Source: Acidimicrobiia bacterium (GTDB lineage Bacteria; Actinomycetota; Acidimicrobiia; Spongiisociales; ZC4RG35). From it: DNA of 64,000 bases. The position numbers were made by a program, and so were the translations under genes. Position 1 is the stretch's first letter. Every line of letters begins with the position of its first letter. Below, one piece after another: positions 40,123 through 56,714 of this stretch. The notes under the pieces are model-generated. The model was not told where the DNA came from. It saw nothing but the letters and a program-made list of their open reading frames with translations, and made no database searches. The DNA lies in the NCBI GenBank assembly GCA_035292685.1, contig DATDPP010000079.1, forward strand, positions 21,390-85,389. The letters run 5' to 3'.

Positions 40123-42480
40123 CTATGTGGGGATCCTGGCACCCCGACCACTGATCGCGTTGAACACCCATTCGCTGCTGACCGGATGGTGATTGACCAC
40201 GATCCCGTACTGGCTCAAGGCGTGCTCGATGGCGGAGATGACGGCCGCGGCGGCGGGAAGGGTTCCCCCCTCCCCCGCCCCCTTGGCTCCGAGTGGATTG
40301 AACGGGGACGGGGTCTCCGTGTGGAGTTTGGTCAGGGGAGGCATATCAACTGCTGTCATCAACCGATAGTCCATGAATGAGGTGGTGAGCGGCTGACCGG
40401 ATTCGGTGAATACCACTTGCTCCAAAAGCGCATTGCCCAGACCGTGGGCCACTCCCCCATCGATCTGGCCGTCCACGATCATCGGGTTGAGGACCGTGCC
40501 ACAGTCATGGACCACGACATAATTGACGACCGTCACCTGACCGGTCTCCGGGTCCACCTCCACTTCGGCAATATGGGTGCCGTAGGCGTAGGCGGCCCCT
40601 TGGAATGGGAGCACTCGCTCGACCGACAGTCCGGGGCGCTCCTGATGGAGCAGCACAGTGGATCCGAGCTTCGGTTGAACACCGGATGCCAGATCACCGA
40701 GTGAGATCTCGGTTCCCGGCTGGCCAACCACCATCGCAGCACCACCGACCAGAACGATGTCCTCCGGTGACGCCTCCAGCTTCTGCGCCGCCAACTCCTT
40801 GATCAGGCCCGCGAGTTCAATCGCTGTGGTGTGGATTGCCGACGCCGCGGTCACCCCGGTGCGGCTGGCCACCGTCGCCATGCCGTGGGCGTAGCGCCCG
40901 GTGTCCCCACCCCGCACCCGGACCTTTCCGGGGTCGACCCCAAGGTGTTCGGCGCAGATCTGGGCAAAAACCGTGGCGTGGCCCTGGCCCTGGGAGCCCG
41001 CCCCGGTTTCGACCAGCACATCACCGTTGGTCAGAACCTCGATACGGGCCCCCTCGTATGGGCCCAGACCGGTGTCCTCGACATAGGAGGCGATTCCATA
41101 TCCCCGAAGTTTTCCCTGCTGTGCCGACCAGGCACGTCGCTCTTCGAACTCATCGACAGTGGCCGCCTCCAGCGCCATCTCCATAGCAGCGGGGTAGTCG
41201 CCCCCGTCATAAGTGGTAGGGCTCCCATCGGTGGCCGGGATATCTATCCGGTAGGGAAAGGCATCCGGTGGGATGAAGTTTCGCCGTCTCACCTCTGCCC
41301 GGTTCAGATCGAGCTCTCGGGCAATGGCGTCTATGAGTCGCTCGACCGCGAAAACCGCGTTAGGTCGCCCTGCGCCACGAATGGCGCCGGTTGGGGACGC
41401 ATTGGTGAATACCACATCGATCGATACCTCGAGTGCCGGGACCACGTAGGGCCCTGACATCAATCGGAGTGTGGTGAAAGGAACTGGGAGCCCATAGGCC
41501 ACAAAAGCACCGATGTCGTGGACTAGTCGGCCCCGGATCCCGAGGATCCTCCCCTCGGAATCCACCGCAGCCTCCACCCGACCACTCTGCCCCCGTTGCT
41601 GGTTGGTGGCCACGAAATGCTCGCGTCGGCGCTCAGTCCATTTCACGGGGCGGCGCAGCCGCGAGGCCAACGCCGCCACCACGTACTCCTCGGCGTAAAC
41701 CGTCGCTTTGGGCCCAAAACCACCACCGACGTCGGGGGCGATCACCCGCAACTCGTCCGGAGAGAGGCCGAGATACGAGGACACGAGAGTCCGCACGGCG
41801 TGTGGGGCCTGGCTGGACGACCACAGTGTCAGCCGACCCTCCACATCGTCCCAGCGACCGACAACGGCCCGACATTCCATCGAGGCCAGGGCCCCCCGAT
41901 GCTGGTCCACATCGATTGAGATCTGATGGTCAGCCTCTTGGAACGCCGCATCGAGATCCCCGTATCTGGCCGCGATGGTCGCCACCAGATTCGATTCGGA
42001 GCCGACATGAGCCGGAGGCGCGTCGTCGTCAAGCGCTCGTCGGTGGTCGATGACAACAGGGAGCACCTCGTAGTCGACCTCGACCTGACCGGCGGCGTCG
42101 ACGGCCTCGGCCTGGCTCTCGGCAACCACGACTGCGACGGGTTGGCCCACGAAACAGACCTCTCCCACGGCCAGCGGAGAGGCGCGGATCGGCTGGCGGA
42201 TGAGTGGAGACTGATTCTGCGCCGGCATCGGTGATTCGACCCCCAGGTCCGCGGCCGTGAAGAAGCCGATCAGCCCGGTGGTCCCCGCGGGGTCAAACGA
42301 AATGGAATCGATCAAGGCATGGGCTTCTGCGCTTCGGATGAACACCGCGTGGGCCATTCCCTCGAACTGGATGTCGTCGACGTAGCGCCCCTCCCCCCTC
42401 ACCAGACGAGGATCTTCGAGACGACGGAGCGGGCGGCCGATCAACGAACCAGCCCGCCCAACTCCTCGAGATACCGGCAC
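40123..42480 (-). CDS. Molybdopterin-binding large subunit of a xanthine-dehydrogenase/aldehyde-oxidase/CoxL-family hydroxylase
   Basis: 'RLEDPRLVRGEGRYVDD' N-terminus, 'GAIRGAGRP' active-site-loop type, 'GGGFG' and C-terminal 'AKGAGEGG'. The alternative TTG start at 42444 would give a TTGA overlap with the upstream stop. Confidence 0.9.
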   Translation of the reverse strand: MPVSRGVGRAGSLIGRPLRRLEDPRLVRGEGRYVDDIQFEGMAHAVFIRSAEAHALIDSISFDPAGTTGLIGFFTAADLGVESPMPAQNQSPLIRQPIRASPLAVGEVCFVGQPVAVVVAESQAEAVDAAGQVEVDYEVLPVVIDHRRALDDDAPPAHVGSESNLVATIAARYGDLDAAFQEADHQISIDVDQHRGALASMECRAVVGRWDDVEGRLTLWSSSQAPHAVRTLVSSYLGLSPDELRVIAPDVGGGFGPKATVYAEEYVVAALASRLRRPVKWTERRREHFVATNQQRGQSGRVEAAVDSEGRILGIRGRLVHDIGAFVAYGLPVPFTTLRLMSGPYVVPALEVSIDVVFTNASPTGAIRGAGRPNAVFAVERLIDAIARELDLNRAEVRRRNFIPPDAFPYRIDIPATDGSPTTYDGGDYPAAMEMALEAATVDEFEERRAWSAQQGKLRGYGIASYVEDTGLGPYEGARIEVLTNGDVLVETGAGSQGQGHATVFAQICAEHLGVDPGKVRVRGGDTGRYAHGMATVASRTGVTAASAIHTTAIELAGLIKELAAQKLEASPEDIVLVGGAAMVVGQPGTEISLGDLASGVQPKLGSTVLLHQERPGLSVERVLPFQGAAYAYGTHIAEVEVDPETGQVTVVNYVVVHDCGTVLNPMIVDGQIDGGVAHGLGNALLEQVVFTESGQPLTTSFMDYRLMTAVDMPPLTKLHTETPSPFNPLGAKGAGEGGTLPAAAAVISAIEHALSQYGIVVNHHPVSSEWVFNAISGRGARIPT

Positions 42481-43316
42481 AGGGCAGCGGCATCGAGGTC
42501 TCCCAGCCCGGCGTTACTCGACTCCATGTAGACGGGGATGGCCGCGTCGAGAAGTGGTGTTGGCGCACCGACCGACTCTGCGAAGTCCTTGATGATCCGT
42601 GCGTCTTTGAGGATGATGTCGAGGCGGGCCGCCGTTGGGTAATCGTCGTTCACCATCATTGGGCCTCGTATCTCGAAGATCTTCGAGGACCCGACCCCAT
42701 CGGTCATGACCTCCTGGACCAGGGCCGGGTCGAGCCCGGCAGCGATCCCGAGCGCATGAGCCTCGGCGGTCGCCAGGTTATGCACCGCCACCAGCAGGTT
42801 GGCAACGTACTTCATCCTCGACCCGTTGCCGAAGTCACCCAGGTAATGGGTCGATCGCCCGATGGCGTCCAACACGGGCCGCGCCCGCTCGAATCCCTCC
42901 GGACTGCCAGAGGCAAATACCACCAGAGTGGCGTCCGCCGCCTGAAGACCCGTCCCTGAGAGAGGCGTGTCCATCAACTCCACGCCCTTCGCCGCCAACG
43001 ACGACCTTGCGGCCGTCTTGGCGTCGAGGGGGAAGGTCCCCGTTTCCAGACAGAGCAGGCCGCTGTGGGCGTTGGCTGCCACTTCTGTGACCACAGCTGA
43101 AAGGGACGACGTAGTGGGCAGCGAGAAAACCACCACATCGGAGTCGGCCGCAACCTCACCCGCCGACGCCGACTCGACCCCACCTTTCGCAACCATTGCC
43201 GCGATCTTCTCAGGCGCGATGTCGAAGCCCTTCACCCGGTGACCCGCCCTCAGGAGGTTTCCGGCCATCGCCGAGCCCATCACCCCGAGACCGATCACAC
43301 CGACCCGATCACTCAT
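42441..43316 (-). CDS. HIBADH-type NAD(P)-dependent beta-hydroxyacid dehydrogenase
   Basis: 'VGVIGLGVMGSAM', 'LMDTPLSGTG' and 'GNGSRMKYVANLL'. Start taken at ATG 43316. Confidence 0.85.
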   Translation of the reverse strand: MSDRVGVIGLGVMGSAMAGNLLRAGHRVKGFDIAPEKIAAMVAKGGVESASAGEVAADSDVVVFSLPTTSSLSAVVTEVAANAHSGLLCLETGTFPLDAKTAARSSLAAKGVELMDTPLSGTGLQAADATLVVFASGSPEGFERARPVLDAIGRSTHYLGDFGNGSRMKYVANLLVAVHNLATAEAHALGIAAGLDPALVQEVMTDGVGSSKIFEIRGPMMVNDDYPTAARLDIILKDARIIKDFAESVGAPTPLLDAAIPVYMESSNAGLGDLDAAALCRYLEELGGLVR

Positions 43317-44949
43317 CGTCGCCTCCTCGGAGCGGCAGCGACGAAACCACCCCGGCATAGCCGTCGACAGCCACGATCTCGAGCCTATCCCCGGGAAGAT
43401 CGACGCCGCACACAGCCGGGACGCCGAGCGCCCTGGCCGAATCGAATAGATGCGCTGCTGGGCTCCCTGACGCAGTCACCAGCCCGGCAGCGTCCCAGAG
43501 CAGCGGCGCCAGGCCAGGCACTGGCTGTACCGCGGACGCCACCTGTCGGACGCGGAAGGACTCTGTCAAGCTTGAGTCGTCGATCGGACACCGTAGTCCG
43601 GCACCGACACCGGATGAGGCCGGGGTGCCACGATGATGACGCCCGTTCACCAGGACAACAGCAGCAACGAATGGCTCCCATTGGCCGATCCCGACCCTCG
43701 CTGCCATGACGCGGGTGGACCCGCCGAGCACCGAGTCCACGTCGCCTTTCGCCAGATACCAGGCTGATTCTGCGTCCGCCGCAGCGCCAAGTTCGACCAT
43801 CGTCGTTCGAACCATGCTCACCAAGGAAAGCAGACGCCCGCCAGCCATGGCATCCGGTGGGCGGAGGCGGCGAACCTGCGCGATCGCGCTCGCCGGATCT
43901 GGCCCCCGCAAAGCCCGGATGCATTTCCTGGCGGCCTCGATGGCCGATTCCGGAGGAAGCCCCCAGACCTCCCCTGCAAGTTGGGCGCAGAGCTCTGTCG
44001 CCTCACGCGAAGCCTCGGTCGGCGATCCGAAGTCCGTCGGCACCGGGTCGGGCAAGCCACCCAGGCCCCAGGGGAGGATCCAGGCCTCTCCCAACTGGCC
44101 GGGAGCCTGGACGACAGTCCGTGCCAGCCGAATCAGATGAGGGTCGTCGAGCTCACCCTCCATGACCCCCGCAAATGCGGGTTCGCCAGGTGGCGGAGCA
44201 CCCAGCTGTAGCAACCAGACCTCACCATCGACTGCCGCCCATTCGCTCTGAGTGACCCCCAAAAGCTCGCCGGCCGATCGCATGCTCCTCGCGATCGCGG
44301 TTAGCGTCTCGGCCCCCAACAGCTCTATAAGCTCATCCTCAACCCAGCCATCCTTCCAACGAGCCTGATGACCGGTCACCCAGCCCTGCAACAGTGGGGC
44401 CGGCGAGCCCTTGGTACCGATGATCGAGATGGCCCCATCCGCCTCAATCCGGGCGGTTCCCCCTGCCGAGGGTTGCAATGCAGGTTGGACGATCACAGAC
44501 ATCGCGACCGACCCCGGTTCAATGGATGCTCGCTCCAACCGCTCCAGCGTGGCCACCGCGAAGACCGAGGCCCAGCACCCGACCACGCCTCTGGTCAGAT
44601 CGTCAAGCCCGAGATCGAGATAGGAGGTGAAGGCCCCGGACCACTCGCCAGACGCCTCCAGGCTCGTAGACGATCGCGCCACCAGCATCGGTCCCAACGG
44701 AGACGCCCGAGTTTTCAACTCGGCGCCAAAGGACAAGGGCTCACCGGTGATCGCCAGACGAGCCCCACCCGAACCCCGTTGGGCGAGATTCTCTGCCCCC
44801 AACCTCATGTGCTCGCGCGACGCCCTGCCTTCGACCACGATCCCGGGGAGAATCGGGAGGCCCACCCTCCGGCCACGCGCCAGCCAGGCTGCCTTGGCAC
44901 CGACCCTTCCCGGGTCGAGGCTTCGATCCTCGTCGAGGTCGATGATCAC
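43309..44949 (-). CDS. PEP-synthase/PPDK-like phosphotransferase: ATP-grasp nucleotide-binding domain plus C-terminal phosphohistidine swivel domain, with no PEP/pyruvate TIM-barrel domain
   Basis: N-terminus 'GRVGAKAAWLARGRRVGLPILPGIVV' (PPDK_N-like) and 'MLVARSSTSLE'. C-terminus 'GLVTASGSPAAHLFDSARALGVPAVCGV' (mobile His domain). The protein ends about 30 aa later. Confidence 0.7.
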   Translation of the reverse strand: MIIDLDEDRSLDPGRVGAKAAWLARGRRVGLPILPGIVVEGRASREHMRLGAENLAQRGSGGARLAITGEPLSFGAELKTRASPLGPMLVARSSTSLEASGEWSGAFTSYLDLGLDDLTRGVVGCWASVFAVATLERLERASIEPGSVAMSVIVQPALQPSAGGTARIEADGAISIIGTKGSPAPLLQGWVTGHQARWKDGWVEDELIELLGAETLTAIARSMRSAGELLGVTQSEWAAVDGEVWLLQLGAPPPGEPAFAGVMEGELDDPHLIRLARTVVQAPGQLGEAWILPWGLGGLPDPVPTDFGSPTEASREATELCAQLAGEVWGLPPESAIEAARKCIRALRGPDPASAIAQVRRLRPPDAMAGGRLLSLVSMVRTTMVELGAAADAESAWYLAKGDVDSVLGGSTRVMAARVGIGQWEPFVAAVVLVNGRHHRGTPASSGVGAGLRCPIDDSSLTESFRVRQVASAVQPVPGLAPLLWDAAGLVTASGSPAAHLFDSARALGVPAVCGVDLPGDRLEIVAVDGYAGVVSSLPLRGGDDE

Positions 44950-44954
44950 CCCGG

Positions 44955-46193
44955 TCAGGTGGTCGAGATGATCTCGTGGGAGGCGTAGCTCGATACCAGC
45001 TCGATGCCGGTATCGGTCACGTAGAGCATCTCCTCCAGGCGAACACCGTGATCGTGGAGCTTGCCGTGTTGCGTCTCGAGAGCGAACGTCATCCCCGGCT
45101 GGATCTCGACCGGATGGTCCAAAGACCAGATCCGGGAAATGACCGGAGGATCGTATTGGGCGAGACCGAGACCGTGTCCCCAGAAGTTGGCTGCGGCCTG
45201 GTCCTCCTCCTCATATCCCCAGACCTCCTTGGCCGAAGGCCACTGCGAGGCAACATCTGCGGTGGTAACCCCGGGTTTGGTGGCCTCGATCGAATCCCAC
45301 AGCCATTTGTGGGCCAGGTCATAGGTCTGCTGATGTTCGTCGGTGGGTGTGCCACCCACGCAATAGGTGCGATAGACACACGACTTGAAGCCATTCCAGG
45401 TCAACGCAGCCAGGTCGACGATCACCAATTCGCCAGGCCTGATCATGCGATCGGAGAAGTTGCGCCAATTTGGCCAGGCGTTGGGGCCGGAGGAGACGAT
45501 GACGTCCTCGACGTCTTCCATGCCAGGGAGCGAATAGAGCTTCTCGAACCCAAAGGCAGCGACCTCGTTCTCGGTCAACCCGGGCTTTATGAAGTTGGTG
45601 ATCTCGTAATGGACGTAGTCGCAAATCGCCCCCACGATCGAGAACGCCTTGATCTCGTCTGGGCTCTTGATCGCCCGGGCCTCCATCATCGGGGTCATTC
45701 CATCGGTCCAGTTGATCCCGCGTGCCTCGAATTGGCGCACCAGGTTGATGTCGATGAAGTCGACGCCAAGCGGCTGGTCTTTGACTCCTGCCTCCTCCAG
45801 GTCGTTCATCAGGGCGTCGAGGAACTTGTTGACCTGCTGCTCGGCTGCGGGGCCGACCGCTCCCTTGATCCAGGAGTAGGAGTAGCGGATGTTCTCCTCG
45901 GGAATCCAAGGATTGTGGACTTTGAGATGAAAACCGATATCGCCCTGTTCGTACACGATGGGTGGCTTACCGGCGGTCAGCACCACGTAGCGAAGGCCCG
46001 GCTTCAACCGGTTCCAACCGGGCGTGAGGGTCGAGGACACGTAACGCATGTTCTCGTCGTAGAACAGGAGCAGCGCACCCAGACCGTGGCGCTCCATTGC
46101 CGCGTGAGCGCGTTTGAGCCTCCAATCCCGCACATTGGCCCAGTTGATGCCTTCCTTCCAGTCGGTGCTCAGACCGAAAAACGCTTCTCTCAT
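44955..46193 (-). CDS. M24-family (creatinase/prolidase pita-bread fold) protein with a variant metal site
   Basis: Creatinase_N-like N-domain; C-domain motifs 'VIVDLAALTWNGFKSCVYRT', 'WGHGLGL', 'FALETQ' and 'VRLEEML'. Confidence 0.8.
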   Translation of the reverse strand: MREAFFGLSTDWKEGINWANVRDWRLKRAHAAMERHGLGALLLFYDENMRYVSSTLTPGWNRLKPGLRYVVLTAGKPPIVYEQGDIGFHLKVHNPWIPEENIRYSYSWIKGAVGPAAEQQVNKFLDALMNDLEEAGVKDQPLGVDFIDINLVRQFEARGINWTDGMTPMMEARAIKSPDEIKAFSIVGAICDYVHYEITNFIKPGLTENEVAAFGFEKLYSLPGMEDVEDVIVSSGPNAWPNWRNFSDRMIRPGELVIVDLAALTWNGFKSCVYRTYCVGGTPTDEHQQTYDLAHKWLWDSIEATKPGVTTADVASQWPSAKEVWGYEEEDQAAANFWGHGLGLAQYDPPVISRIWSLDHPVEIQPGMTFALETQHGKLHDHGVRLEEMLYVTDTGIELVSSYASHEIISTT

Positions 46194-46218: not shown

Positions 46219-47451
46219 TCAACCGACCCTATCCGGGATCACCTCGCGCACAATGTCGAGAAACTCGTCATCGTCGAGAAGGCCTTTCTTGGCGAGCGAC
46301 CGACCTTTGACCTCGGCGAGGATCGCCTCGATCTGCTTCGTCTCGGCGTCGAAGATGTCGTGTCTTCCAAGCCAGATCGCCACTGAGTCGAGACCGGATC
46401 CCTTTCCCAGGACGATCTTTGGCATGCTCTGGCCGACCAGCTCGGGACGATAGGGGAAGGGCTCGAGCAGGTCGTCGCCCACGTTCTTCACCCACGTGGC
46501 GATGATCCCCGACTCGACATTGAACAGCATGTCGCCGGTCACCGGTCGATTCGACGGCTGGGCTACGCCTGACAACTCCGCCACCAAACGAGCGATTTCG
46601 GTGAATTTCTCGGTCTTGACCCCCATGTCGATCCCGTACATCGTGAGCAAAGCGAGCACGGTCTCCTCGGTCGGTGCGTTCCCGGCGCGCTCCCCGATGC
46701 CACTGACCGTGGTGTGAATGACCGAAGCGCCTTCGGCCACGGCCAAGGCCGTGTTGGCCACGCCCATCCCGAAATCCATGTGGAAATGAGTCTCGAGCGG
46801 GACGTCGAGACGTTCCCGAACCCGCCGGGTGTAATAGCGGATCGCATGTGGAGAGGTGACCCCGAAGGTGTCGACGAGGGCGATGTTGTCGACATGACCG
46901 TTGGTGGCCACCGTCTCCAGGTCGTCGAGCAGCTCGGTCATCGTCGCCCGGGTGGCGTCGATGGGGAAGAATGTGACCTTGAGACCGTTCTCGTGGGCGT
47001 ACTTGGTGGCTTCGACGGATGCCTCGATCGCCCTCTCCACCGGCCACCGGTAGGCCTTCTCGATGAGATGATGGCTGGCAGGGACCTCCATGACCACACC
47101 TGTCACCCCACAGTCGAGTGCCAGCTCCACGTCGGGGACCATGCATCGACTGAAGGCATAGATCTCGGTCGGGAGCTCCGCGGCGACCATGCGCTCGATG
47201 GCCTGTTTGTCCGACGGTGAGACTGCGGGGAGCCCGGCCTCGATCCGGTGGATCCCGGCCTCAGCCAGGGCCTCGGCAAGCCTGACTTTCTCGTCGGCGG
47301 TGAACTCGACCCCTGCCTGCTGCTCACCGTCACGCAGGGTCACGTCATGGACCTTCACCTCGGACGGTATCTGGAATTCCCCGGTCACCTCAGGCAGATA
47401 GTTCCAAGGGCTCGAAAACCATTGGTCCGTCTTCCATGGCTCCTGACCCAT
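46219..47451 (-). CDS. HMGL-like / pyruvate carboxyltransferase-domain protein (homocitrate/isopropylmalate/citramalate synthase-type aldolase family)
   Basis: 'VHDVTLRDGEQQAGVEF', 'HFHMDFGMGVANTLAAV'-type HxH metal motif (here 'THFHMDFGMGVANTALAV') and 'GIGERAGNAPTEE'. Confidence 0.85.
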   Translation of the reverse strand: MGQEPWKTDQWFSSPWNYLPEVTGEFQIPSEVKVHDVTLRDGEQQAGVEFTADEKVRLAEALAEAGIHRIEAGLPAVSPSDKQAIERMVAAELPTEIYAFSRCMVPDVELALDCGVTGVVMEVPASHHLIEKAYRWPVERAIEASVEATKYAHENGLKVTFFPIDATRATMTELLDDLETVATNGHVDNIALVDTFGVTSPHAIRYYTRRVRERLDVPLETHFHMDFGMGVANTALAVAEGASVIHTTVSGIGERAGNAPTEETVLALLTMYGIDMGVKTEKFTEIARLVAELSGVAQPSNRPVTGDMLFNVESGIIATWVKNVGDDLLEPFPYRPELVGQSMPKIVLGKGSGLDSVAIWLGRHDIFDAETKQIEAILAEVKGRSLAKKGLLDDDEFLDIVREVIPDRVG

Positions 47452-47475
47452 CTACGCTCCTTTACCATCGTCCGA

Positions 47476-47501
47476 CAGGATGATCCTGCATCATATACGA
47501 T
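47476..47501. promoter_or_regulatory. Motif-1 site E (reverse orientation; rc of 47483..47501 = ATCGTATATGATGCAGGAT) plus an overlapping perfect palindrome CAGGATGATCCTG (47476..47488)
   Basis: 18/19 identical to site C. Lies in the 90-bp divergent gap between the HMGL-like operon (start 47451) and the DctP-like operon (start 47542). Confidence 0.65.
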
Positions 47502-47541
47502 CGATTGTGGACGGCCCCGACCGCCGGCCGGAGACCCCCAA

Positions 47542-48462
47542 ATGAAGGCCCAACGCCTGCTCATAGGTGGTTATGGACCGAAAGAGAGCGCCCATGGCGA
47601 GGGCCTGGCGACTTTCCGACAGGTCATCGAGCGAGAGACCGATGGTCAGGTCCTGGTAGACGTCATCTGGAACATCATGGAACAGGGGCGTCCCAACACC
47701 GACCTCTTCGACATGGTCGAGTCCGGTGAGATGTTCTTGTGCTACTTCTCGAGCAGTTATCTGGGGGATCGGGTGCCCCATCTCAATATCCTGGAGACCC
47801 CCTATCTGTTCCACGACCTCGACTCGGCCCACCGTGCTCTCGACGGTTCCTTGGGCCGCGCCCTGGCCGAAGCGGTGCGGGTCGGCGCCGGGTTCGAGTT
47901 GCTCGGGCTCTGGGACAACGGATTTCGGCATTTCACCAATCGGCACCACCCGGTGCGGTCTCCCACGGATTGTGCAGGAATGACGGTTCGCCTCCAGCCC
48001 AACGCCGTCCATGAGGAGTTGATCAGGTCATGGGGGGCAATCCCGGTCCCCGTCGACCTCAAGGCGGGCATCGAGATGATCGGTCGTCTCGAGGTCGATG
48101 CCCAGGAGAACCCATTGGCCAACACCGTGGCCTACGGAGTCGACAAGCTCCATCGCTTCGTGACCATGACCGGCCATCTCTACGGCGCTCGCGGGCTGTT
48201 TGCCCACGCTCCCACCTGGGATTCGTTCCCACCCGACCTCCGAGCCACCGTGAGCAGGGCTGCGCAAGAAGCTGTCAGCCATCAGCGAGAGGCGGCGGAA
48301 GCGCTGGAGGCCAAACTGCGCACCCGGCTCGAGGAATCCGGGACCGAGTTCGTGGATCTGACACCGGAGGAGCACGCGGCATTCATCGAGGCGTCGGCTC
48401 CTGCGATTGTCCTTGCCCATTCCGGTGTGCCGGTGGAGCTGTTCGAGTTGGCCGCACCATGA
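47542..48462 (+). CDS. DctP-like (TRAP-type) solute-binding protein homologue without a signal peptide
   Basis: DctP-family pattern 'GLWDNGFRHFTN', 'VDAQENPL' and 'HLYG'. The N-terminus 'MKAQRLLIGGYGPKE' has no hydrophobic h-region, lipobox or twin-Arg motif. Confidence 0.7.
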   Translation: MKAQRLLIGGYGPKESAHGEGLATFRQVIERETDGQVLVDVIWNIMEQGRPNTDLFDMVESGEMFLCYFSSSYLGDRVPHLNILETPYLFHDLDSAHRALDGSLGRALAEAVRVGAGFELLGLWDNGFRHFTNRHHPVRSPTDCAGMTVRLQPNAVHEELIRSWGAIPVPVDLKAGIEMIGRLEVDAQENPLANTVAYGVDKLHRFVTMTGHLYGARGLFAHAPTWDSFPPDLRATVSRAAQEAVSHQREAAEALEAKLRTRLEESGTEFVDLTPEEHAAFIEASAPAIVLAHSGVPVELFELAAP

Positions 48463-55571: not shown

Positions 55572-56714
55572 GTGGCCAAGGCGCAGACGGCGTTGGTCGC
55601 ATCCGAGGCCGATGGGGTGTTGGTTTGGAAGGACGAGAACGTCCGATATCTCACCTCGCTGCGGGCACAGCTCATCGCAGGCAAGACGACTTCCCTCAAC
55701 GGCGCCCTGCTGACCGCGACGGAGGATCCGATCCTGCTCGGCTCCGGCGGGGAGATCGACAAGGCACGGTTTGGGATGAGCTGGATCGGTGAGGCTCACG
55801 CGGTGCCGATCATGGAGCAACGAGAGCTGGTTGACGGGTTCGTCAAGAACATTCTGACCCCTCTCCTCGCTTCGAGGGGGCTCACCTCGGGGAGACTGGC
55901 CGTCGACCAGGCCAACATCTCGTTCATCCAGTCGATGCGGGCCCATTTCCCCGACCTCGAACTGGTCGACGGTGACACCGTGATGCAACAGGCCCGTTGG
56001 ATCAAAACCGATCTCGAAGTGGCAGTAATCGAAGAGGCGTGTGCCATAGGCGACTCGGTGACACAACGTGCCCTCGATGAGACCCGCGCCGGCCGTCGTG
56101 AGCTCGATGTCGCCGCCGACGCCATGCAGACCCTATTCCAACTCGGTGGTGAGATGGCCCATGTCATCACCCCGTTCGTTGCGTCGGGTGAACACATGTC
56201 ACCCCCTCACCGTCTCGCCACCGACAAGATCATCCGCAACCAGGACCTGGTTTTCATCGACATAGGCGCCATGTGGAACGGCTACTTCGCCGACATCGGG
56301 CGGACCACCATCGTGGGCAGACCATCCAAACAACAACAAGAGATCTACACCGCGGTCTACAAGGGGCTTATGGCCGGGTTGGACAAGATGCGCCCCGGGT
56401 TCACCAACCAGGATTGCGCCGACGCCATCATCGCCAAAATCGCCGAACACGGGCTCGAGGATCACCTGTTCAATCTCTTCATCGGTCACGGGATCGGAAT
56501 GGGCGCCAACGAGCCCCCATACATAGGAGAAACGCTGCCCGGCGCCACCACCTACCAATTCCAACCAAACATGGTGTTCGCAGTGGAACCGCTGGTGTGG
56601 GTGCCCAACGTACGTGGCGGCGGCGGCGTGCGTCTCGAGGACATGGTGCTCATCACCGACAACGACCCACACCTCCTCTCCCGGGTCGAATACGAAGAAC
56701 GACTCCTGCTCTGA
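55572..56714 (+). CDS. M24-family (creatinase/Xaa-Pro peptidase fold) metallohydrolase; the true start is probably upstream (see finding)
   Basis: Full metal-ligand set: 'VFIDIGAMWNGYFADIGRT', 'IGHGIGMG', 'FAVEP' and 'VRLEDMV'. The coordinates use the first canonical start (GTG). Confidence 0.8.
   Translation: MAKAQTALVASEADGVLVWKDENVRYLTSLRAQLIAGKTTSLNGALLTATEDPILLGSGGEIDKARFGMSWIGEAHAVPIMEQRELVDGFVKNILTPLLASRGLTSGRLAVDQANISFIQSMRAHFPDLELVDGDTVMQQARWIKTDLEVAVIEEACAIGDSVTQRALDETRAGRRELDVAADAMQTLFQLGGEMAHVITPFVASGEHMSPPHRLATDKIIRNQDLVFIDIGAMWNGYFADIGRTTIVGRPSKQQQEIYTAVYKGLMAGLDKMRPGFTNQDCADAIIAKIAEHGLEDHLFNLFIGHGIGMGANEPPYIGETLPGATTYQFQPNMVFAVEPLVWVPNVRGGGGVRLEDMVLITDNDPHLLSRVEYEERLLL

Follow-up and report, generated by a model that had tools for sequence, protein, structure and literature searches.

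What acceptor serves a PEP synthase-like protein whose reading frame stops directly after the phosphohistidine domain? The question is raised by a gene in the window, that is, the whole stretch of 64,000 nucleotides analysed here. Dikinases of the PpsA, PPDK and rifampicin phosphotransferase (RPH) type are modular, the ATP-grasp and the swivelling His domain serving an exchangeable third acceptor domain. To our knowledge, all characterised dikinases hold this acceptor domain either in cis, where it is a barrel or a RIF-binding domain, or, with HpeH, on the polypeptide that bears the swivel. The gene considered here and its neighbours are arranged as follows.

43309..44949, minus strand: truncated dikinase (PPDKl), 546 aa; from the ORF and its translation, Pfam, an AF2 model and fold matches
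44179..44949, minus strand: ATP-grasp nucleotide-binding domain of the dikinase, residues 1-257; from fold and residue alignment
43636..44178, minus strand: all-helical, family-specific middle domain, residues 258-438; from a model folded alone and a PDB fold search
43309..43635, minus strand: C-terminal phosphohistidine swivel domain, residues 439-546; from PF00391, fold and alignment of the His
42441..43316, minus strand: HIBADH-family dehydrogenase (Pfam NAD_binding_2 and NAD_binding_11), overlapping the dikinase gene by 8 nt
44955..46193, minus strand: Cys-variant M24 (creatinase/prolidase/DddP-like) protein, 412 aa (Pfam Peptidase_M24; distant DddP match)
46219..47451, minus strand: HMGL-like (homocitrate/isopropylmalate-synthase-like) DRE-TIM barrel protein, first gene of the operon (Pfam HMGL-like, E 1.9e-62)

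Reading frame and domains of the dikinase

The dikinase gene begins with GTG. Its 546-residue translation contains the three motifs quoted in the initial annotation (residues 14-39, 89-98 and 489-516) and ends 30 residues after the last of them, as described there. The annotation had also envisaged that a TIM barrel might prove to be fused to the protein once a sequencing frameshift near the 3′ end was corrected. This was looked for, and the stop codon is genuine: the end of the gene, whose TGA occupies 43309-43311, overlaps with the dehydrogenase gene, which has its ATG at 43314-43316 and a GGAGG (43322-43326) 5 nt upstream of that ATG. The C-terminus is moreover conserved among homologues of the same length. 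No fused longer relatives, of 957-2730 aa, were found at E≤1e-10, which counts as weak evidence given the search tool. A frameshifted or fused barrel was rejected, since no PF02896 match lies beside the dikinase and the downstream gene encodes a dehydrogenase with its own ribosome binding site. This dehydrogenase is predicted to be translationally coupled to the dikinase.

As the annotation had anticipated, PPDK_N (PF01326; 28.5 bits, cut-off 27) and PEP-utilizers (PF00391; 29.3 bits, cut-off 23.1; residues 478-533) match the protein above their gathering cut-offs, and PEP-utilizers_C (PF02896) gives no Pfam match at E≤0.1. Using the AF2 model (pLDDT 84.6), the fold search suggested there returned RPH first, the best matches being RPH, PpsA and PPDK. 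The ATP-grasp domain superimposes on the ATP-binding domain of RPH (5hv6; VIA-align Z 23.6, rmsd 2.8 Å, 247 residues) and on HpeI (9goj; Z 19.2). K19, R92 and S109 align with RPH K22, R117 and T136, which are needed for function according to mutagenesis, and E236 aligns with E297, an Mg ligand that RPH can do without (PMC4844700). In a MAFFT alignment of 116 full-length family members, from which all conservation counts for the dikinase are derived, K19, R92 and Q155 are 100% invariant and Ser or Thr at position 109 is 100% conserved. The C-terminal domain matches swivel-type domains (Z 13.6, rmsd 2.1 Å). The catalytic His candidate singled out in the annotation is H500 (codon 43450-43452), which aligns with the catalytic His of the solved PEP synthases 8a8e and 9dae and is invariant, as is G495; R506 is 98% conserved. 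The Arg of the Q-x-R motif of PpsA and PPDK (R337 in PPDK) is not conserved in the family, the present sequence reading Q248-L-G, so that the ATP chemistry of the dikinase may differ. The Pfam models, the two folds and the invariant K19, R92 and H500 place the protein in the PEP synthase/PPDK/RPH superfamily, with its ATP and His catalytic residues intact and the barrel absent.

The 181-residue middle domain folds with confidence when modelled alone (pLDDT 91.1, pTM 0.86), and none of 48,161 PDB representatives matches it with Z≥5 (best Z 3.5). CheA P1/Hpt-like bundles, at Z about 3, were discarded as not meaningful. It is the least conserved part of the protein, with a median identity of 35% (minimum 12%) vs 49% and 51% in the flanking domains, and many members lack about 30 of its residues. 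W294, W329, R418 and W424 are conserved positions; in about 20% of members, the Trp have been lost or cannot be aligned. Thus the reading given in the annotation stands in part. An ATP-grasp and His-swivel protein without a TIM barrel is what is found, and the absence of the barrel means that another phosphoryl acceptor must be used. The proposal that the middle segment is the substrate-binding insert did not survive, in view of its low conservation, its optional stretch and its lack of likeness to the RIF-binding domain or to any PDB fold.

Judged by sequence, the dikinase belongs to a distinct family. The latter amounts, at E<1e-30, to about 250 clusters formed at 50% identity, and hundreds of homologues share length and architecture; in the ESM Atlas, only clusters of the same architecture were found, all from Actinomycetota. 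Since the same genome also encodes a canonical PpsA (832 aa) and a canonical PPDK (907 aa), each with PF02896, the dikinase is an extra paralogue and not the PEP synthase of the cell.

The M24 protein and the operon

The stop codon of the M24 gene lies 5 nt before the dikinase start. An M24 gene is found directly upstream in 72 of 80 dikinase-seeded loci, with a median identity of 91%. In seven of the eight other loci, the contig extends less than 600 nt beyond the dikinase on its upstream side. Of the 73 loci that reach far enough upstream, 72 therefore show the pairing, the exception being L064. Conversely, in an independent, M24-seeded metagenome scan, the dikinase directly follows M24 in 57 of the 62 loci with room for it. 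HMM searches revealed a family match in a rearranged locus (L182, E 2e-65), another directly downstream (L203, E 4e-26) and a marginal one at a contig end (L194, E 7e-5); with these considered, 57-60 of the 62 loci carry the dikinase. Among 401 Actinomycetota genomes, the same six hold the M24 subfamily and the dikinase family (at least 306 bits), and the best other paralogue in this sample of the phylum reaches at most 93 bits. The pairing and co-occurrence of the two genes are near-obligate. Literature searches returned no description of this pairing. As the two genes are almost always adjacent, the dikinase and the M24 protein probably form one, so far undescribed, enzyme. The pair is widespread among Acidimicrobiia that live in soil, in the sea or with sponges. 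Homologues of the M24 protein, about 79% identical, occur in the cultured Actinomycetes Phytohabitans suffuscus and Salinactinospora qingdaonensis, for which the M24 gene only was compared.

The M24 fold is recognised by Pfam (PF00557, E 5.8e-34). All of the 151 sequences compared have D260, C272, H340, E373 and E387; the set of metal ligands is therefore D-C-H-E-E instead of the five ligands D, D, H, E, E of the M24 clan, a Cys (Cys272, codon 45378-45380) standing where the second Asp would be. A canonical M24 paralogue at 55572..56714 has Asp at this position. The M24 protein is among the slowest-evolving proteins in the dikinase loci: its identity across loci stays at 64-96%, whereas that of the dikinase drops to 25-75%. 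The helical domain of the dikinase being the least conserved and partly deletable while the M24 protein is highly conserved, an acceptor site within the dikinase is unlikely; it is more likely located in the Cys-variant M24 protein than in the middle segment.

The rest of the neighbourhood is less constant. The HMGL-like protein, whose best solved relative is homocitrate synthase 6ktq, is encoded in 65 of 80 dikinase-seeded loci. Its gene is directly upstream of M24 in only 19 of 66 M24-seeded loci, an S15-family hydrolase occupying this position in 17, and two loci (L007 and L071) show a minimal module of M24 and dikinase without HMGL. The HMGL-like gene was added to the pair in a clade-specific manner. 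These same distributions led us to reject its TIM barrel as a PEP/pyruvate barrel provided in trans. The HIBADH-family dehydrogenase, present in 52 of 80 dikinase-seeded loci and mostly directly downstream, scores below every NCBIfam equivalog cut-off (best L-threonate dehydrogenase, 202 vs 350 bits). The recurrent neighbours, namely HIBADH, Zn-ADH, GFO/IDH/MocA and Amidohydro_2 proteins, together with the HMGL-like protein or the S15 hydrolase, suggest that the substrate may be a small organic acid of the hydroxy or amido type.

A proposed divided dikinase and other possible readings

In the model that we favour, and to which we give an even chance, the dikinase would be an ATP-dependent module and the obligate partner of the M24 protein, the latter supplying the acceptor site. 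ATP would be bound by the ATP-grasp domain. His500 on the swivel would be pyrophosphorylated, then phosphorylated, AMP and Pi being released, in the manner of PEP synthase and RPH; we infer in particular that the dikinase autophosphorylates at His500 and that it interacts physically with the M24 protein. Phosphoryl transfer by the swivel domain would follow, either to a small molecule bound at the active site of the M24 protein or, transiently, to one of the residues of that protein, and the phosphorylated substrate would thereby be activated for hydrolysis or elimination. The acceptor site would thus lie within the M24 protein, whose "pita-bread" domain would replace in trans the TIM barrel of PpsA and PPDK or the RIF-binding domain of RPH. 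A bolder version, which we advance only tentatively, is that of a new two-protein enzyme in which the phosphohistidine swivel docks on the M24 site and phosphorylates either the bound substrate or M24 Cys272/His340, making a hydrolase or lyase reaction of the M24 type ATP-dependent and AMP-forming. If so, this would be a third way, besides the hydantoinase/oxoprolinase and acetone-carboxylase types, to activate a small molecule that is inert, for instance a lactam, an amide or a hydroxy acid bound for phosphate elimination. Dikinase and M24 enzymology would be extended to a new reaction type if the two proteins act together, and a function would be assigned to a module widespread in Acidimicrobiia. 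Several observations count against a divided dikinase. The much higher rate of evolution of the dikinase, compared with the M24 protein, would be compatible with an accessory or regulatory role as well; tight operon linkage would equally fit two consecutive steps of a pathway without any complex; and the Arg of Q-x-R is absent.

One may also imagine a self-contained phosphotransferase, a kind of reduced RPH, with the substrate held in the helical domain and phosphorylated by His500, the M24 protein catalysing the next or the previous step, for instance by eliminating or hydrolysing the phospho-product. The fold search ranks RPH first, with the same domain order and the swivel at the C-terminus, W294, W329, R418 and W424 could line a pocket, and operon linkage is typical of consecutive steps. 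We nevertheless find this account rather unlikely: the supposed substrate domain is the very part that is least conserved and partly optional, its Trp residues are dispensed with or unalignable in a fifth or so of the members, and it does not resemble the RIF-binding domain. Besides, the near one-to-one association with a single M24 subfamily, while the remaining neighbourhood varies, exceeds what is usual for neighbours in a pathway.

A regulatory role has a precedent in VadK (Rv1127c) of M. tuberculosis, a two-domain protein derived from PPDK that autophosphorylates on His and has enzymes from the methylcitrate cycle as interaction partners (PMC13400623). By analogy, flux would be tuned through binding or phosphorylation of the M24 (or HMGL-like) enzyme by the phosphorylated dikinase, with no metabolite being phosphorylated, and a dikinase that evolves fast in comparison with M24 would suit such an accessory role. 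Mycobacteria such as M. smegmatis have no VadK (PMC13400623), which is thus dispensable in some lineages, whereas the M24 subfamily almost never occurs without the dikinase. As the dikinase shares only the swivel motif with a putative VadK-type protein and the genome has no PrpD homologue, this role appears improbable. More speculative still is a reaction run in the energy-conserving direction, where a phospho-intermediate produced by the M24 and HMGL-like enzymes would serve to make ATP from AMP and Pi or PPi. Dikinase reactions are reversible, PPDK makes ATP in some microbes, and the neighbourhood, with its transporters and dehydrogenases, looks catabolic. This idea is purely inferential, shows no sign of a phospho-donor and has to contend with the absence of an equivalent of PPDK Arg337 at the phosphate site; its probability is very low. 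Finally, Pfam scores barely above threshold might evoke a functionless PEP synthase remnant that has lost its barrel. Hundreds of homologues with the same length and architecture, catalytic residues invariant down to about 25% identity, and a conserved start and stop with translational coupling to both neighbours effectively refute such decay, to which almost no weight can be given.

Comparison with known systems

The M24 partner shares the pita-bread domain and four of the five metal ligands with the M24 enzymes acting on small molecules (DddP, creatinase, the ectoine hydrolase DoeA, prolidases). With the DMSP lyase DddP, the alignment is full-length but distant (residues 17-404 to 51-438 of 4s00), and the NCBIfam model of DddP gives 106.9 bits for a cut-off of 600. 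Known M24 enzymes have a second, bridging Asp where the partner has its invariant Cys. We know of no M24 enzyme coupled to a kinase, nor of any that uses a phosphorylated substrate or partner.

On the dikinase side, it is RPH (PDB 5hv1/5fbs; PMC4844700) that matches the structure best (Foldseek E 9e-19, VIA-align Z 25.9). Both proteins have the ATP-grasp domain first, the His-swivel at the extreme C-terminus and no TIM barrel. However, RPH has about 865 residues, including a RIF-binding domain of about 430 residues that carries the acceptor site, where the dikinase has its unrelated helical domain; and RPH works without an obligate partner protein, unlike the dikinase. An assignment as RPH was rejected (NF041857, 26.6 bits vs a cut-off of 999; no Rph_4th Pfam match; no RIF-binding domain). 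The ATP-grasp and swivel folds and the region of the catalytic His motif are shared with PpsA and PPDK (Z 24.4 with 2ols, 22.8 with 1dik). PpsA and PPDK read T-S-H at the motif, the dikinase A-A-H. A PEP synthase was set aside on TIGR01418 (29.9 vs 739.75 bits) and NF005057 (31.7 vs 598 bits), the lack of PF02896 and the genuine stop, as was a prodigiosin ligase of the PigC/RedH type (about 880 aa; 26.1 vs 1300 and 29.5 vs 1350 bits).

HpeHI offers a precedent for a small-molecule dikinase divided over separate polypeptides and acting on catabolic substrates (PMC12167813). In HpeHI and phenylphosphate synthase, the division falls between the ATP-grasp protein HpeI and HpeH, which joins the swivel to a RIF-BD-like domain, whereas in the present dikinase ATP-grasp and swivel are fused. 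An HpeHI-type two-component enzyme was therefore discarded, both catalytic domains lying in one ORF that has no RIF-BD-like domain. Two-component loci do occur elsewhere in Actinomycetota (L122-L124; scores ≤1e-7 against the dikinase family profile) and stand apart from the dikinase family, and short PF01326 matches of about 490-526 aa in other members of the phylum were dismissed as the first genes of HpeHI-like pairs.

VadK and the dikinase, both from Actinomycetota, are similar in size and have two catalytic domains, ATP-grasp and His, without the PEP/pyruvate barrel. The comparison was made with a putative VadK-type protein, not with Rv1127c itself: it was located from PF01326 matches across five genomes belonging to one family, together with closeness to prpD, and this protein, L212, has two domains and lies 5.6 kb from a prpD homologue. 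On the two Pfam models, L212 reaches 124 and 76 bits and the dikinase 28 and 29, and BLASTP aligns the two over the swivel motif only (25 bits, E 0.007); for L213, the hhalign probability is 42%. MmgE_PrpD has no match in the source genome, which is 97% complete. With this putative VadK-type comparator, neither orthology to VadK nor linkage to prpDC and the methylcitrate cycle was found, and from these sequence comparisons the dikinase appears to be a lineage independent of VadK. In conclusion, the dikinase is distinct from RPH, PpsA, PPDK and HpeHI, and also from VadK, as set apart through the putative VadK-type protein.

The dikinase gene and its domains

The gene under study reads as follows:
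43309..44949, minus strand: dikinase ORF, GTG start, 546 residues in translation

The three motifs quoted in the initial annotation, which described a PEP-synthase/PPDK-like protein ending after the phosphohistidine swivel domain, are all present in the translation (residues 14-39, 89-98 and 489-516). As that annotation had expected, Pfam searches found PPDK_N (28.5 bits for a cut-off of 27, residues 88-166) and PEP-utilizers (29.3 bits for a cut-off of 23.1, residues 478-533), with no match to PEP-utilizers_C. The sole NCBIfam matches, to the PEP synthase, rifampin phosphotransferase (RPH), PigC and RedH models, are all far sub-threshold. The catalytic histidines of the archaeal PEP synthases 8a8e and 9dae align with His500, the residue already put forward as the candidate catalytic His; its motif is G-S-P-A-A-H-L-F, as opposed to G-G-x-T-S-H-A-A in canonical enzymes.

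The limits of the gene are clear at both ends. Five nucleotides separate the stop codon (TGA) of the upstream M24 gene from the GTG, and the M-I-x-D-L-D opening also starts the homologues. The stop codon (43309-43311) is overlapped by the start of the HIBADH-type dehydrogenase gene (ATG at 43314-43316, with GGAGG 5 nt upstream); the overlap amounts to 8 nt (ATGAGTGA, window 43309-43326). This arrangement leaves no room for a barrel and gives no hint of the frameshift that had been considered as possibly hiding a fused one. The search found no longer relatives, which is weak evidence. A longer HIBADH ORF in the ORF-finder list begins with an ATG at 43358, probably not the real start.

An AF2 model, computed with 34 homologues as input, has a mean pLDDT of 84.6. 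The best Foldseek match is rifampin phosphotransferase (E 9e-19), with PPDK, HpeI and PpsA next in rank; the two relatives proposed initially for structural comparison, RPH and PpsA, were both matched. Using VIA-align, residues 1-257 correspond to the ATP-grasp domain (Z 23.6, rmsd 2.8 Å with 5hv6; Z 19.2 with HpeI 9goj) and residues ~435-539 to the swivel domain (Z 13.6, rmsd 2.1 Å). Between them, residues 258-438 form an all-helical segment, modelled in isolation with a pLDDT of 91 and a pTM of 0.86. None of 48,161 PDB representatives matched this helical domain at Z>=5 (best Z 3.5); such an absence does not prove a new fold. The same search ruled out a RIF-binding domain, a PPDK linker or a barrel.

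Mutagenesis has shown that RPH function needs the ATP-site residues K22, R117 and T136 (PMC4844700), which align with K19, R92 and S109 of the dikinase. The Mg ligand E297, dispensable in RPH, corresponds to E236. K19, R92, Q155, G495 and H500 show 100% conservation among 116 full-length family members, pooled from two independent samplings; only S or T occurs at position 109, and conservation of R506 reaches 98%. In contrast to PpsA and PPDK (Q-x-R; R337 in PPDK), the Arg two residues past the conserved Gln is not conserved (Q248-L-G). We infer an ATP-dependent enzyme that would autophosphorylate on His500.

Of the three domains, the helical one is the least conserved (median identity 35%, compared with 49% for ATP-grasp and 51% for swivel) and is partly deletable, which speaks against the earlier view of the middle segment as a substrate-binding insert. 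About a third of the members lack a segment of ~30 residues (query ~383-412; alignment A1, columns ~430-460; loci L008, L009, L012-L016 and others), and this length polymorphism defines sub-clades.

The dikinase is not the housekeeping enzyme. The host genome (97% complete) also encodes an 832-aa PpsA and a 907-aa PPDK, each with a barrel, as well as two more proteins of ~870 aa carrying both PPDK_N and PEP-utilizers without a barrel. Full-database HMMER searches gave 248 clusters (50% identity) at E<1e-30; complete ones are mostly 500-600 aa, and the named members, all 'PEP-utilizing enzyme', come from Acidimicrobiia MAGs. In 401 evenly drawn Actinomycetota genomes, the profile scored at least 306 bits in six and at most 93 bits elsewhere, the family being therefore cleanly separated. 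A few of the genomes sampled are unpublished (G226, G001, G336, G391, G268 and others), and these enter the 6/401 count as non-members only.

Pairing with a Cys-variant M24 protein

The relevant neighbours are:
44955-46193, minus strand: M24 protein, metal-ligand positions D260, C272, H340, E373 and E387
46219-47451, minus strand: HMGL-like protein, 410 aa, homocitrate/isopropylmalate-synthase-like, without LeuA regulatory domain
40123-42480, minus strand: Mo-hydroxylase large subunit (Aerobic-CODH/xanthine-dehydrogenase type)
47248-48462, plus strand: DctP-type TRAP solute-binding homologue, divergent from the operon

The five M24 ligand positions are invariant in 151 sequences, Cys272 replacing the second Asp; a canonical M24 paralogue (55572..56714) has Asp there. 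Checks bore out this Asp-to-Cys variant and a six-gene operon, both pointed out earlier for the window. The M24 protein aligns full-length, distantly, with the DMSP lyase DddP (107 bits with the NCBIfam model, cut-off 600). Named proteins of Phytohabitans and Salinactinospora match it at ~79% identity.

The pairing of the dikinase with this protein is near-obligate and near one-to-one. The M24 gene lies upstream in 72 of 80 dikinase-seeded genome loci (median identity 91% for M24, 47% for the dikinase), and in seven of the other eight the contig ends <600 nt before the dikinase, which leaves L064 as the one clear exception. Both families occur in exactly the same six of the 401 genomes; the M24-then-dikinase order is kept in all five besides the window's own, and HMGL precedes in four of these. 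An independent M24-seeded metagenome scan found the dikinase immediately 3' of M24 in 57 of the 62 loci having >=500 nt of downstream sequence. HMM searches gave a directly downstream dikinase in L203 (E 4e-26), a rearranged one in L182 (E 2e-65), a marginal match at the contig end in L194 (E 7e-5), a weak match on the opposite strand only in L192, and none in L148. The L182 contig (1-3294) begins its module with M24, continues with an HMGL-like gene in inverted orientation and a second, short fragment of M24, and closes it with the dikinase. Across M24-seeded loci, identity is 64-96% for M24 (Acidimicrobiia and soil metagenomes) and goes down to 25-75% for the dikinase.

The HMGL-like gene is accessory, confined to a subset of these modules. 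It occurs in 65 of the 80 dikinase-seeded loci (Acidimicrobiia, median identity 87%) and directly upstream of M24 in just 19 of 66 M24-seeded loci; 17 M24-seeded loci have an S15/CocE-NonD-type hydrolase instead. This hydrolase (Peptidase_S15 + PepX_C) adjoins the pair in many soil-metagenome loci (L176:1748-3598, L058:11678-13417), and L007 and L071 contain the pair without further module genes. The HMGL-like protein has the L-R-D-G-E-Q and H-x-H motifs, falls below every NCBIfam cut-off, and has 6ktq as its best solved relative.

Looser recurrent neighbours are HIBADH, Zn-ADH, GFO/IDH/MocA, Amidohydro_2 and GntR- or XRE-cupin regulators. Also nearby are the Mo-hydroxylase large subunit, an orphan, transporters of the MFS and EamA types and the DctP homologue. 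Such a gene content suggests that a small polar organic compound is catabolised, whose identity it does not give. The Mo-hydroxylase gene has neither a small (FeS) nor a medium (FAD) subunit gene beside it, and in some related loci a gap of 1-2 kb separates it from the MFS gene. Since the listed start of the DctP homologue overlaps the HMGL gene, the real one must be further downstream; its annotated neighbours included no DctQM genes.

Possible mechanisms

It may be proposed that the pair forms a split dikinase, with the M24 protein supplying the acceptor site, a statement to which, as a whole, we give roughly an even chance. The substrate would be activated by phosphorylation, and the M24 site would then carry out a hydrolysis or an elimination. 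This reading is favored because the helical domain is variable and partly dispensable, whereas M24 is nearly frozen and almost never found without the dikinase. Alternatively, with perhaps half that credence, the dikinase would be a self-contained mini-RPH and the M24 protein the next pathway step.

A regulatory autokinase resembling VadK appears rather unlikely: VadK is missing from M. smegmatis, by its authors' account (PMC13400623), but the near one-to-one co-occurrence of M24 and dikinase counts against a dispensable regulator. A reverse, ATP-forming role is improbable, and a dead remnant can hardly be entertained.

Comparison with known dikinases

RPH is nearest to the dikinase in fold and domain order, VadK (PMC13400623) in architecture and size, and HpeHI (PMC12167813) in split-enzyme logic. 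Membership is excluded in each case by a defining feature that was tested. The dikinase has no RIF-binding domain and is therefore not an RPH; its ATP-grasp domain is not on a separate polypeptide and it is therefore not an HpeHI. For VadK, there is no detectable orthology with the putative VadK-type protein L212 (BLASTP 25 bits, swivel motif only). L212 (G243:C1:738357-740015), likely a VadK-type locus, encodes a PPDK-like protein with two domains (PPDK_N at 124 bits, PEP-utilizers at 76 bits) and no barrel; a prpD homologue lies 5.6 kb away, and the genome measures 5.1 Mb. The window's own genome (97% complete) has no PrpD homologue. Two-gene dikinases of other Actinomycetota (L122, L123, L124), with an ATP-grasp ORF of 360-490 aa beside a ~600-aa ORF, resemble the HpeHI/phenylphosphate-synthase arrangement.

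Literature searches found no paper describing the M24-dikinase pair. The dikinase is a real feature, a variant within a known enzyme class, and provides a case in which a new acceptor module for swivelling-His dikinases could be tested directly.
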